Positions 10,472 to 15,204 of a stretch of DNA of 64,000 nucleotides are shown here, one piece after another (positions within the stretch are counted from its first letter, which is position 1; the number at the start of each line of letters is the position of its first letter). This DNA comes from a bacterium (GTDB taxonomy: Bacteria; Bacillota; Clostridia; TANB77; RGIG9151). A program made the translations under genes and the position numbers. The notes below the pieces were generated by a model. The model searched no databases, was not told the DNA's origin, and was given only the letters and a program-made list of their open reading frames with translations. The stretch covers positions 17,768 to 81,767 of the forward strand of contig CAVHFU010000002.1 in assembly GCA_963635575.1 (NCBI GenBank). The letters are read 5' to 3'.

Positions 10472-10500
10472 TTGACTGGAAGGGAACTCTAAGGTATTAT
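10472..10500 (+). promoter_or_regulatory. sigmaA-type promoter for agrB
   Basis: TTGACT - 17 nt - TATTAT, 42 nt upstream of the agrB ATG and downstream of the copy A terminator. Confidence 0.5.
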
Positions 10501-10542
10501 ATAAGTGTCAAAACACAAGACTGTTGTGAAGGAGTGAGTGAT

Positions 10543-11160
10543 ATGCTAGAAGAACTCAGTGAAAAGATTGGAAATGCGGTAGAGGATAATCTTGATGATA
10601 TAACGCCTACTCAAAAAGAGATTATTCGATACACAATAGTGCAAGTTTTTGGAGAACTTATAAAAATAGCAATAATGTTTGCTATTGCATGGCCGTTTGG
10701 AGTAGCACATTTGTTGTTGATAGCTATTCTTTCTATGGCCATATATAGGGTTCCGTCAGGCGGAGTACATTCTAAAAGTCATATCGCTTGCTTTGTCACA
10801 AGTATGATTTTGTTTATGGGAAATGTTTTAATTTCATCGTTAGTAAAAGGACCACATCTAGATATTATATATATATTAATTTTTTTAGTAAATATTCCTA
10901 TTATTCATTATTTTGCTCCGGCAGATACAGAAATGAAACCGGTAATAAGTAGAAAACAAAGACTGTTGCTAAGAATTATTTCTTATATATGTATGACTGG
11001 TACAATATTAATAGGCAGATTTGCAATTAGCGATGTAGTTATAAGAAATATATTTATATTTGGGACATTAATTCAAAGCATAACAATGCTACCATTTATA
11101 TATAAAATTTTGGGAACTAAGTATGGATACAGAGACGGAATAGTAGTTCCGCAAATTTAG
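10543..11160 (+). CDS. agrB: Accessory gene regulator protein B (AgrB-family AIP-processing membrane peptidase)
   Basis: Polytopic membrane protein with conserved RVPSGGVHSKSHIAC (catalytic His/Cys of the AgrB family). AAGGAG RBS 9 nt before ATG 10543. Confidence 0.75.
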   Translation: MLEELSEKIGNAVEDNLDDITPTQKEIIRYTIVQVFGELIKIAIMFAIAWPFGVAHLLLIAILSMAIYRVPSGGVHSKSHIACFVTSMILFMGNVLISSLVKGPHLDIIYILIFLVNIPIIHYFAPADTEMKPVISRKQRLLLRIISYICMTGTILIGRFAISDVVIRNIFIFGTLIQSITMLPFIYKILGTKYGYRDGIVVPQI

Positions 11161-11218
11161 ATTCTTTTAGAGTGGCGCGTGCTCTTGGAATATATAAAAA
11201 TAAAAGGAGGAGTTTTTT

Positions 11219-11347
11219 ATGAAAAAAATGTTATGTAAGTTGGTAAACAAGGTGGCAACAGTATACGGAGGAATGACAAGTAGTGCATCAACATTTTTAG
11301 TATTAGGCCAAGTTAAAACACCGGCTTGTTTAATTAAGAAAGATTAG
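11219..11347 (+). CDS. agrD: AgrD-like autoinducing-peptide precursor (42 aa)
   Basis: AAAGGAGGAG RBS. Basic/amphipathic leader MKKMLCKLVNKVATVYGG. Single Cys near the C-terminus (TPACLIKKD). Immediately downstream of agrB. Confidence 0.5.
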   Translation: MKKMLCKLVNKVATVYGGMTSSASTFLVLGQVKTPACLIKKD

Positions 11348-11409
11348 TATATAAGTAGTACTTTGCCGGTAGGCGTAAGTTTACGAATATTTTAATGGTG
11401 TTTCACTTA

Positions 11410-11445
11410 AAAAGCCTCTCGACCGGTCCTCGAGAAGCTTTTTTT
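11410..11445 (+). terminator. Rho-independent terminator after agrD
   Basis: GCCTCTCGAccggtccTCGAGAAGC hairpin followed by a T-run. Confidence 0.55.
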
Positions 11446-11450
11446 ATTTT

Positions 11451-12233: not shown

Positions 12234-12251
12234 AATGTTTTTACCCCCTTT

Positions 12252-12758
12252 CTATTCTTCTAAAATTATCTTTAGTTTTTCTTTAAGCATTTCTCTTGCT
12301 CTTTTCATTCGAGTTCTTACAGTGGCTTCAGGAATATTTAATACATTAGAAATTTCTAATGTAGAAAAGTCTTTATAATAGTAAAGAATTAAAACATCTT
12401 TATATTTAGTAGGTAACAGTAAAATTTCATTTAATATCATATTCGCATTTTCAGTATCTATTATGTTTTCGTCGAAACTTGAATTTTCTATTGCATCATT
12501 AAAACTTTCGATAGAAACTACTTTCTTTTTCCAAGCGCTTTTTAAATAATCTTTACATGTATTTAGCGTTATTTTTATAATCCATGTTTTTTCTGAGCTT
12601 TTTCCTTTAAATGAGCCAAGATATTTATTAACTTTTAAAAAAACATCTTGAAATATGTCCTCGGCTGTGCTAGGATTTTGCGTATATAGTGTCGCTATAC
12701 GTAAAACATCGTTACCGTAAAGCTCAATTAAACTTTCAAGCTTTTCTTTATTATTCAT
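12252..12758 (-). CDS. ECF-type RNA polymerase sigma-70 factor
   Basis: 168 aa. Region 2 (DIFQDVFLKV) and region 4 HTH (STLEISNVLNIPEATVRTRMKRAR). Confidence 0.8.
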   Translation of the reverse strand: MNNKEKLESLIELYGNDVLRIATLYTQNPSTAEDIFQDVFLKVNKYLGSFKGKSSEKTWIIKITLNTCKDYLKSAWKKKVVSIESFNDAIENSSFDENIIDTENANMILNEILLLPTKYKDVLILYYYKDFSTLEISNVLNIPEATVRTRMKRAREMLKEKLKIILEE

Positions 12759-12783
12759 AACTTCAACTCCTACGGTTAATTAT

Positions 12784-12812
12784 TAGACGAATTAATGCTT
12801 AACTTTGTTTCA
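12784..12812 (-). promoter_or_regulatory. ECF (sigW/sigM-type) autoregulatory promoter
   Basis: On the minus strand, TGAAAC - 17 nt - CGTCTA lies ~25 nt upstream of the sigma gene RBS and matches the ECF consensus. Confidence 0.5.
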
Positions 12813-12867
12813 AGTATAGTATGACATATTTTTAAATATTTTTCAAAGGGATTTTGGAGGAGCGTTT

Positions 12868-14202
12868 ATGGATTATTATATTTTAACACCAATTTCATTT
12901 GTATTAAGGATATTTGAAGTATTTTCACAGTTTAGTTTGATTTTAATTATACTTGGCAGAGGTATTTTTGGTAAACGCCATTTTATCGGGGCGGCATTAT
13001 TTTCTGTGATTTTTGAATTAGGTAAGTTAATTTGCCCACATTATTTATGGGGCTTTTTATCTTTGATTTTAGGAATACCTTTTATAACGATTTATTTTAA
13101 GGAAAACGTATGGAAGGTTGGAATATCTTATATAATTACAGGAATCGCAGTGGCTTTTTTAGACTTTATAGTATTATTAGTTTTATCAATAACATTTAAT
13201 ATACCAAAATTCGATGACATAGTAGAAATACCGTTATTATATAATATAGGTTGTTTAATAATTTCCGTATCATTATTGGGAATAAGCTACTTTAGTTACT
13301 TAATAAAGAAAAAGCATAATAAGAAATTTGAGTCTTTACCTAAAGTCACTACAGGAATAGTTAATGCAATTGCGACATTTTTATTGTTAGTACCTAATCT
13401 AGTTATGCTTTTGTATTACCATGATGATAAAAACATACCGCGTGTAATTGTAATTATAAACATTATCGCAATTATAGCCATGTTTTTTATAACTACTTAC
13501 AACATGAAAAAAGGTTTTGAATTAGTAACTGCTGAGCAAGAATTAGTAACTCAAAAGACGTATAATAAAACTCTGCAAAACCTTGTAGATGGATTGCGTA
13601 CGTTTAAACATGATTATAACAATACACTTCAAACGATGTATGGTTATATACAGTTAGATAATATGACTGCACTGCGAGAATTTTTTGAACAAATATTGGA
13701 TGAGTCAAGAGCTATAACGGCATTAGATAAATTAAATCCTGATCTCTTTAAAAATCCAAGTTTGTTTGGATTAATTACTGCAAAGTATGAATATGCAAGG
13801 CAAAATAATGTTAATATAAATTTTGAAATGTACGGCAAACTTGAAAATGCTAATATGCAAATATATGATTTAACAAGAACTCTTGGAATATTTTTAGATA
13901 ATGCAATTGAGGCATCTGCCGGAAGCGATAAGAAAAAGGTTAACTTTATGGTATGTGAAAGAAGAGGGAAGGTAGTTGTCGAAATTACTAATTCATATTC
14001 TGAAACAGGGTTAAAGATGGAAAACATAAATGATAAGGGTATGTCTTCAAAAGGAGAAAATAGAGGATTAGGTTTATATAAAGTTAAGGAAATATTAAAG
14101 AAGTACCCTGATGTTAAGCATGAAACAACAGCATCAAACGGTATGTTTATGCAAAGACTTACCATTAGTAAAATAAAAGAAAATGCAAAACAAAAATGTT
14201 AG
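12868..14202 (+). CDS. AgrC-type (HPK10 family) membrane sensor histidine kinase
   Basis: Six or seven N-terminal TM helices. H-box RTFKHDYNNTLQTMYGY (RHDxxNhL type of AgrC/ComD/FsrC). GHKL ATPase with N-box LDNAIEAS and G-box GLGLY. Confidence 0.7.
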   Translation: MDYYILTPISFVLRIFEVFSQFSLILIILGRGIFGKRHFIGAALFSVIFELGKLICPHYLWGFLSLILGIPFITIYFKENVWKVGISYIITGIAVAFLDFIVLLVLSITFNIPKFDDIVEIPLLYNIGCLIISVSLLGISYFSYLIKKKHNKKFESLPKVTTGIVNAIATFLLLVPNLVMLLYYHDDKNIPRVIVIINIIAIIAMFFITTYNMKKGFELVTAEQELVTQKTYNKTLQNLVDGLRTFKHDYNNTLQTMYGYIQLDNMTALREFFEQILDESRAITALDKLNPDLFKNPSLFGLITAKYEYARQNNVNINFEMYGKLENANMQIYDLTRTLGIFLDNAIEASAGSDKKKVNFMVCERRGKVVVEITNSYSETGLKMENINDKGMSSKGENRGLGLYKVKEILKKYPDVKHETTASNGMFMQRLTISKIKENAKQKC

Positions 14203-14214
14203 GAGGAGTTTTAT

Positions 14215-15204
14215 ATGTTAAAAGTGGCTGTTTTTGATACAAAACAATATGATATTGCCGGTTTTGAAAAATACGGAAAGGAAAACGATATTAATTTTAA
14301 GTTTTTTGATACAAAACTTACAGAGGATACTGTAGGTTTAGCAAGAGGATCTGACGCAATAGTAGTGTTTGTAAACGATACTGTAAATGAAAAGGTTATA
14401 AATGAGTTATGCGAAAATGGAGTTAAATTAATAGCATTAAGATGTGCCGGATTTAATAATGTGGATTTAAAAGCTGCACAAGACAAAATAACTGTTGTAA
14501 GAGTTCCGGCATATTCTCCATACGCGGTAGCTGAACATACAATGGCACTACTACTTACATCGCTTAGAAGAATTCATAAGGCATATAACAGGACAAGGGA
14601 ATTTAATTTTAGTCTTAACGGACTTACCGGATTCGATTTACATGGAAAGACGATAGGGGTAGTAGGAACAGGAAAAATAGGAAAGATATTTATTAATATT
14701 TGTAAGGGTTTTGGAATGAACGTAATAGCATATGATTTATACCCTGACAAGAATGCAGATATAAAATATGTGAGCTTAGACGAGCTATTTGCAAATAGCG
14801 ATATTATTTCTCTTCATTGTCCACTTACCGCAGACAATAAGTATTTAATTAATAAAGAAACCATTGCTAAGATGAAGAAAGGTGTTTATATTTTAAATAC
14901 TTCTAGGGGAATGTTAATTGATGCAGAAGCATTAATTGAGGGAATAAAAGAGAAAAAGGTTGGCGCAGCTTGTCTGGATGTTTATGAGGAAGAAAATGAT
15001 ATTTTCTTTAAAGATTATTCGGGACATATATTGCAGGACGATATTTTAGCTAGACTTATTTCTATGCCAAATGTTATTATTACATCTCATCAGGCATTTT
15101 TAACTGAAGAAGCTTTGGATAATATAGCGAATACTACTGCAAAAAATATAAAGACTTTCTTTGATGATGGAAAATGCGAAAATGAAATAGCATATAAAGA
15201 GTAA
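14215..15204 (+). CDS. ldhA: D-lactate dehydrogenase (D-isomer-specific 2-hydroxyacid dehydrogenase)
   Basis: Near-collinear similarity to fermentative LdhA (KLIALRCAGFNNVDLKAA...VVRVPAYSPYAVAEH...GVVGTGKIG). RBS AGGAGG; starts 12 nt after the kinase stop. Confidence 0.8.
   Translation: MLKVAVFDTKQYDIAGFEKYGKENDINFKFFDTKLTEDTVGLARGSDAIVVFVNDTVNEKVINELCENGVKLIALRCAGFNNVDLKAAQDKITVVRVPAYSPYAVAEHTMALLLTSLRRIHKAYNRTREFNFSLNGLTGFDLHGKTIGVVGTGKIGKIFINICKGFGMNVIAYDLYPDKNADIKYVSLDELFANSDIISLHCPLTADNKYLINKETIAKMKKGVYILNTSRGMLIDAEALIEGIKEKKVGAACLDVYEEENDIFFKDYSGHILQDDILARLISMPNVIITSHQAFLTEEALDNIANTTAKNIKTFFDDGKCENEIAYKE

Follow-up and report, generated by a model that had tools for sequence, protein, structure and literature searches.

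Introduction

The canonical agr quorum-sensing locus, the agrBDCA operon of Staphylococcus aureus, joins the genes of a peptide-processing membrane peptidase, a peptide precursor, a receptor histidine kinase and a response regulator. Several clostridial systems are laid out differently. System 1 of Clostridium autoethanogenum consists of agrD1-agrC1-agrB1 with no agrA, an arrangement that is kept in several related species and for which its authors propose a regulator encoded elsewhere (PMC8748961). In C. difficile, the AgrC-like kinase RgaS works with the separately encoded regulator RgaR, and the VirS/VirR pair of C. perfringens responds to the agrBD peptide (PMC10602386). For the signal itself, C. 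thermocellum provides an experimental precedent for a Ser-lactone pentapeptide cut at an Ala|Ser bond (PMC5322536). Here we describe an agr-type locus at positions 10472-15204 of a stretch of 64,000 nucleotides (hereafter the window) of contig CAVHFU010000002.1, assembly GCA_963635575.1. The locus contains agrB, agrD and the gene of an AgrC-like kinase and has no agrA; an inverted gene pair for an extracytoplasmic function (ECF) sigma factor and a membrane protein, a putative anti-sigma factor, stands between agrD and the kinase gene.

The window has a G+C content of about 31%, and related contigs are labeled as uncultured Eubacteriales or Clostridia metagenome-assembled genomes. The host is a spore-forming member of the Clostridia; a gene for a small acid-soluble spore protein (SASP) lies in the neighborhood. 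An initial sequence-only reading of the window had placed agrB, agrD, the sigma factor, the membrane protein, the kinase and a downstream dehydrogenase, and these coordinates and gene identities were confirmed. The overall reading that we prefer, and consider reasonably probable though far from certain, is that of two modules: a functional agr set without a regulator gene and an independent ECF sigma pair.

The agr genes and their conservation

The agrB gene (10543-11160, + strand) encodes an AgrD-processing membrane peptidase. The PF04647 hit (E=2.9e-31; 108.7 bits, cut-off 23) upholds the original call. Its residues His76 and Cys83, each at least 97% conserved across 72 AgrB sequences (from the window and the fetched loci), align with His77 and Cys84 of S. 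aureus AgrB. No AgrB relative was found among solved structures by sequence search.

The kinase gene (12868-14202, + strand) encodes an AgrC-like receptor histidine kinase with a sensor region spanning residues 1 to about 210 (about six to seven hydrophobic segments in residues 1-208), an H-box, FKHDYNN, whose histidine is His248, an N-box (LDNAIEA) and a G-box. His248, the N-box and the G-box are invariant across the clade of relatives defined below. HATPase_c_5 (63 bits) and SPOB_a (PF14689, 35.9 bits) are both above cut-off, and the only solved structures matched are those of S. aureus AgrC (6E52 at 4e-28, and 4BXI), so that the AgrC-like assignment of the sequence-only reading is borne out. 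The kinase belongs to the broad AgrC family only, because it scores 127.9 bits against the staphylococcal AgrC equivalog NF046015, for which the cut-off is 500.

Relatives of the kinase were collected by a protein search that returned 489 homologs; genomic contexts were read for 11 of the 489, and tblastn was used to survey 78 more genome loci. The clade relatives considered here form three sublineages whose kinases share at least 49% identity with the window kinase, and their flanks were inspected over up to 6-10 kb per side, as the contig permitted. Loci of the window type (L001/L002, L004, L013 and L174) have the order agrB-agrD, then the membrane-protein and sigma genes in inverted orientation, then the kinase and the dehydrogenase. 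Loci of the L005 type (L005/L006) have the order sigma-membrane protein-rplM-rpsI-agrB-agrD-kinase, and those of the L007 type (L007, L015, L091 and L092) the order gpsA-rplM-rpsI-agrB-agrD-kinase; in these, the nearest 8-10 kb hold no sigma gene. The host organisms are closely related, as judged from pyrH and upp, in which the window and L005 share 91-93% identity, and from rplM and rpsI, in which L005 and L007 share 88-92%.

No response regulator gene is present in the inspected flanks of any clade relative. In the 64-kb window, tblastn with S. aureus AgrA and two clostridial AgrA-like proteins detected no receiver or LytTR domain, and a profile made from 136 AgrA-like regulators, run by unfiltered hmmsearch over all 496 open reading frames (ORFs) of 40 codons or more, gave a best E-value of 0.06 and no regulator. 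The agr locus is thus free of receiver domains of every kind over about 10 kb on its upstream side and 49 kb on its downstream side. The earlier statement that no LytTR regulator is encoded nearby is thereby extended to the whole window and to the flanks of all clade relatives. The absence is conserved in every clade relative inspected and is not an accident of assembly. Since the three sublineages keep agrB, agrD and agrC and none has a regulator, the conserved unit of the clade is agrB-agrD-agrC without agrA. In about 70 outgroup loci, where the kinases are 28-38% identical to that of the window, a LytTR regulator gene lies almost always directly upstream and is accompanied by a convergent agrD-agrB pair.

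AgrC-like kinases that stand alone, with neither agrBD nor a regulator nearby, were also seen, in L008/L009 (38% identity) and in L093 (41%). L093 and the agrBDC-bearing locus L006 come from the same sample, JGI 3300032167.

The AgrD-like precursor and its predicted product

Directly after agrB lies a conserved ORF (11219-11347, + strand) for an AgrD-like precursor of 42 residues, which has no Pfam match and is present and conserved in every clade relative. Its predicted layout is a leader (residues 1-23), a ring formed by Ser24-Val28 (STFLV, a lactone) and a 14-residue tail, LGQVKTPACLIKKD. The assignment is guided by outgroup AgrDs that pass the family model TIGR04223. These have the form NAC-ring-...KMPAS(L/M)I, whereas those of the window clade have the form NAS-ring-...KTPxCLI; the tails align as KTPxCLIKKD in the window clade and KMPASMIKD in the outgroup and are 14 residues long in both. 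Because Ser24 aligns with the ring Cys of the outgroup AgrDs, it occupies the position of the ring nucleophile, and with Ser as the nucleophile a lactone is predicted. A Ser lactone of five residues, freed from the leader at an Ala|Ser bond, is thus expected. Cys37 was considered as the ring nucleophile and rejected: it is part of the invariant tail, and its counterpart in the outgroup tails is a Ser.

Co-diversification of sensor and peptide

The nine AgrD sequences differ from one another in residues 25-29 only, where the variants TFLVL, SFLIL, TFLLV, MFLFL, AILWL, IFLLL, IVWLI and MLWLL occur. The kinase varies in a comparable manner. L007 and L092, which have different rings, are 66% identical in the kinase sensor and 97% identical in both the catalytic half of the kinase and AgrB; for L004 and L013, whose rings also differ, the values are 57% (sensor), 90% (catalytic half) and 93% (AgrB). 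With an identical ring, L007 and L015 reach 99% in the sensor and 100% in the catalytic half and in AgrB. Since the AgrD ring and the sensor are hypervariable and AgrB and the catalytic half are conserved, at 94-97% identity overall, the kinase is best taken as the cognate receptor of the adjacent AgrD peptide; this pattern of variation is the classic signature of agr specificity groups.

The kinase had been described as an orphan. As far as its signal is concerned, this description does not hold: the kinase co-diversifies with the adjacent AgrD, and its gene directly follows agrD in the sister lineages. An AgrC-like kinase should accordingly not be called an orphan from local gene order alone.

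All genes of the locus are under purifying selection. The ratio of nonsynonymous to synonymous substitution rates (dN/dS) is 0.04-0.12 for AgrB, 0.02-0.06 for the catalytic half of the kinase and 0.11-0.35 for its sensor; for the membrane protein it is 0.08-0.21 in the N-terminal part and 0.24-0.45 in the outer part. Between L007 and L092, dS is 0.69 in the sensor (kinase codons 1-215), above the values for AgrB (0.20) and for the catalytic half (0.29), which suggests that the hypervariable segment was imported or exchanged by recombination, as in the staphylococcal agr groups.

Predicted transcription units

The agrBD pair is preceded by a predicted promoter, TTGACT-N17-TATTAT (10472-10500, + strand; 10 of 12 consensus matches in a promoter scan), whose -35 box and flanks are kept in all clade loci. 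It is of a near-consensus sigma-A type, an activator may be unnecessary, and inspection of the upstream regions by eye revealed no obvious 9-bp direct repeats with a 12-13 bp spacing of the kind that forms LytTR autoinduction sites. Directly 5' of the promoter, a hairpin followed by a T-run was read from the sequence (10393-10436, + strand). A hairpin and T-run occupy the same spot in all clade loci (L001, L004, L013, L005, L007 and L015), with stems that differ by lineage, and are followed by a conserved element, TTTGTCGAAAT in the window and TTTGTCG(A/G)AAT as the clade form. This hairpin travels with agrB into differing genomic contexts; it is probably an insulating terminator, or may be an operator. 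Downstream of agrD, a terminator scan predicts an intrinsic terminator (11417-11445, + strand) with the hairpin core CGACCGGTCCTCG, which is kept in L001, L004, L013, L005 and L007.

The kinase gene has a putative -10 box of its own, TATAGT (12815-12820, + strand), which was likewise read by inspection and is kept in four window-type loci. It is followed by a gene (14215-15204, + strand; PF02826, PF00389) that had been called ldhA. The product is indeed a D-isomer 2-hydroxyacid (D-lactate-type) dehydrogenase, but it scores below every NCBIfam equivalog cut-off. The stop codon of the kinase gene falls within the ribosome-binding site of the dehydrogenase gene, with no terminator between the two, which points to translational coupling. 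A bidirectional intrinsic terminator (15205-15237), predicted by the terminator scan and visible in the sequence, closes the kinase-dehydrogenase unit. The adjacency of the two genes is kept in window-type loci only.

The ECF sigma pair

The sigma gene (12252-12758, - strand) encodes an ECF sigma factor, as had been read originally: Sigma70_r2 (PF04542) and Sigma70_r4_2 (PF08281) are above cut-off, TIGR02937 gives 108.7 bits against a cut-off of 42.9, and the best solved relative is SigW. The SigW-type promoter reported ahead of this gene was found at 12785-12812 (- strand) as TGAAAC-N17-CGTCTA, and this is the sole TGAAAC-N17-CGTCT site in the 64 kb. By its match to the consensus it is predicted to be the autoregulatory promoter of the sigma operon. 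The motif is kept in L001, L004 and L013 and also occurs upstream of the L005 sigma ortholog. A scan of the window showed no promoter of the ECF type ahead of agrB or ahead of the kinase gene.

The partner gene (11628-12233, - strand), 18 nt downstream of the sigma gene, encodes a protein of 201 residues. It is composed of a cytoplasmic N-terminus of about 40 residues, one transmembrane segment (a single hydrophobic stretch at about residues 43-62 when the translation is read by eye), a hypervariable linker and a conserved C-terminal module of about 45 residues. The sequence-only reading had called this protein a membrane anti-sigma factor. Its position and its single transmembrane segment fit this description; no Pfam or NCBIfam model, those for anti-sigma factors included, matches it even at E<=5, and we therefore treat it as a putative anti-sigma factor on the basis of position and topology. 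We also considered whether its outer domain co-varies with the ring of the autoinducing peptide (AIP), and rejected this: the variation falls in the low-complexity linker and shows no correspondence to the ring.

An orthologous pair is present in L005 (65% identity for the sigma factor and 31% for the membrane partner), about 1.3 kb upstream of agrB and in an arrangement unlike that of the window. Because agrB, agrD and agrC are contiguous in L005 and L007, the presence of the sigma pair between agrD and agrC is a lineage-specific insertion. A metagenome scan returned 16 sigma homologs (40-52% identity) with no agr genes in their flanks; it found no close orthologs and so bears only weakly on the linkage between sigma and agr. 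Separately, ECF sigma homologs of about 30% identity occur on soil metagenome contigs (L121, L123, L127, L129, L142 and others) with a gene for a LytTR-like regulator about 1.2 kb downstream; these homologs belong to an unrelated lineage.

Output of the kinase and alternative readings

In the two-module reading, agrB and agrD would be transcribed from the near-consensus sigma-A promoter up to their own terminator. AgrB would remove the 14-residue AgrD tail and cyclize the peptide through Ser24, and the signal would be a cyclo-STFLV lactone whose N-terminal tail is very short or absent. The AgrC-like kinase, made from a separate transcript shared with the dehydrogenase, would receive this STFLV-type peptide and hand its phosphate to a response regulator of the LytTR type whose gene lies in another part of the genome. 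The self-regulated ECF sigma factor and its membrane partner would have been inserted in this sublineage, in inverted orientation, after the terminator of agrD and ahead of the promoter of agrC.

For the output of the kinase, we hold with moderate confidence that an unlinked LytTR-type regulator is the most likely partner, since the parts of published clostridial agr systems are often unlinked. The H-box of the dimerization and histidine phosphotransfer (DHp) domain, DGLRTFKHDYNNTL, is invariant across the clade and nearly identical to DGLRTFKHDFANTL of the LytTR-paired outgroup kinases L010, L016 and L017, which speaks in favor of a conserved partner of that same kind.

Several observations weigh against this picture. 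No candidate regulator was identified in the 64 kb or in the relatives' flanks of up to 10 kb, and the relatives cover one group of uncultured Clostridia in three sublineages. AgrD scores 15.3 bits against TIGR04223, for which the cut-off is 19. The correlation between ring and sensor is imperfect among the closest loci: the sensors of L174 and L001, which have the same ring, are only 81% identical, and those of the window and L174, which have different rings, are 92% identical. The sigma pair lies near agr genes in two differently arranged sublineages, which is more linkage than chance insertion predicts. Finally, the ECF -35 box (12807-12812) lies right beside the putative -10 box of agrC (12815-12820), so that the two promoters overlap back to back.

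The last two observations are the main points in favor of a functional role for the sigma pair in the circuit, either through competition between overlapping promoters or with the sigma factor as an output or input of AIP signaling. The sequence-only reading had raised such cross-talk between the kinase and the sigma pair. The orthologous pair of L005 speaks for it: window and L005 are 91-93% identical in housekeeping genes, which indicates that the rearrangements are recent, and proximity to agr was preserved through them. The 109-bp region between the sigma and kinase genes is, moreover, strongly conserved among L001, L004, L013 and the window. Against it, the L007-type lineage has agrBDC and no sigma gene nearby, the sole ECF-type promoter of the window is that of the sigma operon, and the 16 more distant sigma homologs have no agr genes beside them. 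An autoregulatory promoter together with a membrane partner is, further, the standard self-contained design of such sigma factors, and the divergence of the partner's outer region does not track the AIP ring. We therefore find the proposed cross-talk unsupported on balance and regard a functional coupling as unlikely. Less likely still is the more specific proposal that the pair has been recruited into the agrA-less circuit, through mutually exclusive back-to-back promoters or with the sigma output replacing AgrA. If coupling were true, peptide quorum sensing and ECF signaling would be connected in a new way; as matters stand, function should not be read into a sigma pair that is simply inserted in one sublineage.

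A different partner for the kinase, in place of an unlinked LytTR regulator, would be Spo0A, phosphorylated directly as by clostridial orphan kinases, or another orphan regulator, agrA having been lost. The whole clade, including the solitary paralogs L008 and L093, has no adjacent regulator, the host is a spore former with a SASP gene in the neighborhood, and the DHp region matches the Spo0B-type helical model PF14689. This model is, however, common in AgrC-like kinases with LytTR partners, for example P0102, and the near identity of the H-box to those of LytTR-paired outgroup kinases also argues against a partner of another type. To our knowledge, the known Spo0A kinases have DHp domains of the HisKA type, which we count against Spo0A. 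Effects of agr on sporulation have been reported in several clostridia (PMC10602386, PMC8748961), but in RgaS, the sole comparable case to have been resolved, the partner was an unlinked VirR-like regulator (PMC10602386). We consider a non-LytTR partner improbable.

That the locus is a decaying remnant, defunct in signaling since the loss of agrA, is very hard to believe: there is no local regulator, mobile-element insertions flank agrBD in this strain and AgrD falls below the family threshold, but the ORFs are intact in all of the 10 or more loci, AgrB and the catalytic half of the kinase have dN/dS values of 0.02-0.12, the catalytic residues (the AgrB His/Cys pair and the kinase His248, N-box and G-box) are invariant, and the pattern of variation is specific to ring and sensor rather than random.

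Repeat elements and neighboring genes

The insertions that flank agrBD are two direct copies of a structured element, 89-91% identical to each other, which had been missed in the sequence-only reading. Copy 1 (10176-10376, + strand) is about 195 nt long, was detected through the direct-repeat families D2/D3 and has a terminator of its own; its RNA is predicted to fold at -62.9 kcal/mol (z=-7.2). Copy 2 (11443-11644, + strand) overlaps the 3' end of the membrane-protein gene and rewrites its final residues and stop codon. Each copy sits in the T-run of an intrinsic terminator (for copy 1, that of the upstream gene) and ends in its own terminator. The site of copy 1 is empty in L174 and L001; that of copy 2 is empty in L174 and holds remnants in L001 and L004. 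No Rfam match above noise was obtained, nor an exact match in metagenome or viral contigs, and among 175 fetched loci there was no further copy apart from a short remnant in L001/L002. The element looks like a miniature inverted-repeat transposable element, and recombination between its two copies could delete agrBD.

Beyond the terminator of the kinase-dehydrogenase unit lies an ORF (15244-16764, - strand) for a probable secreted protein with three tandem repeats of 249 nt (83 residues). Because this ORF, as listed, runs into the gene of tRNA-Gly (16728-16801), translation probably starts at an internal ATG, which would give a protein of about 431 residues, as in the relatives. In L174, the closest relative, genes for an IS110-family transposase and a Bro-N-domain protein (8537-10817 of that locus) lie between the dehydrogenase and the repeat protein; they are absent from the window.

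Comparison with known systems

With S. aureus agrBDCA, the locus shares the His/Cys pair of AgrB, a polytopic HPK10 kinase and the B-D-C gene order. Its AgrD, like that of S. aureus, would have a leader, a five-residue ring and a 14-residue tail, and in both systems the agrD ring and the agrC sensor are hypervariable between conserved flanks. In contrast to S. aureus agr, the locus has neither agrA nor RNAIII, the predicted ring nucleophile is Ser and not Cys, and agrBD and agrC form separate predicted transcription units with a terminator between them and the sigma pair inserted between D and C. The kinase is also distant from S. aureus AgrC, at 128 bits for an equivalog cut-off of 500.

System 1 of C. 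autoethanogenum is likewise a three-gene agr cluster with a receptor kinase and no response regulator. It differs in its gene order, in the spo0E-like neighbor that some of its members have and in the absence of a sigma pair; no spo0E-like gene is listed in the loci of our relatives, and the small neighboring ORF of the window (9873-10145) has no Pfam match at E<=0.01. The AgrD of C. autoethanogenum keeps a Pro-x-x-Pro motif in its tail, whereas the tail of the window AgrD has a single Pro.

The RgaS/RgaR/agrB1D1 system of C. difficile and the VirS/VirR/agrBD system of C. perfringens show that separately encoded parts cooperate. RgaS, however, is not encoded beside agrBD and does not sense AgrD1, whereas the window kinase gene belongs to the same cluster as agrD and its product co-diversifies with AgrD. 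The AgrD of C. (Acetivibrio) thermocellum resembles the prediction for the window in its Ala|Ser cut, its five-residue Ser ring, the lack of an N-terminal tail and a Pro shortly after the ring (PMC5322536). It differs in that its agrD sits outside any agr operon, its AgrB and AgrC partners there being unidentified (PMC5322536).

The sigma pair resembles SigW-RsiW of Bacillus subtilis in having a sigma factor of regions 2 and 4, a predicted autoregulatory AAC...CGT promoter and a single-pass partner that is probably co-transcribed. Unlike RsiW, the window partner has a cytoplasmic part of about 40 residues, no zinc-binding motif and no match to an anti-sigma model. In the literature that could be searched, we found no ECF sigma pair placed between an agrD and an agrC gene.

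The sequence-only reading had gone further and stated that the arrangement as a whole is not a described agr architecture. In view of C. autoethanogenum system 1 (PMC8748961) and RgaS/RgaR (PMC10602386), this was too strong: agr loci with a receptor and without agrA have been described, and Ser-lactone AgrDs are rare yet known. What the window adds to the increasing number of agr systems with an unlinked response regulator is a well-documented example in uncultured Clostridia, in which agrBDC units without agrA still evolve as specificity groups, with a hypervariable ring and sensor, and for which a rare Ser-lactone signal is predicted. Set beside its described relatives, the locus is a system of a known kind with an unusual layout rather than a new kind.

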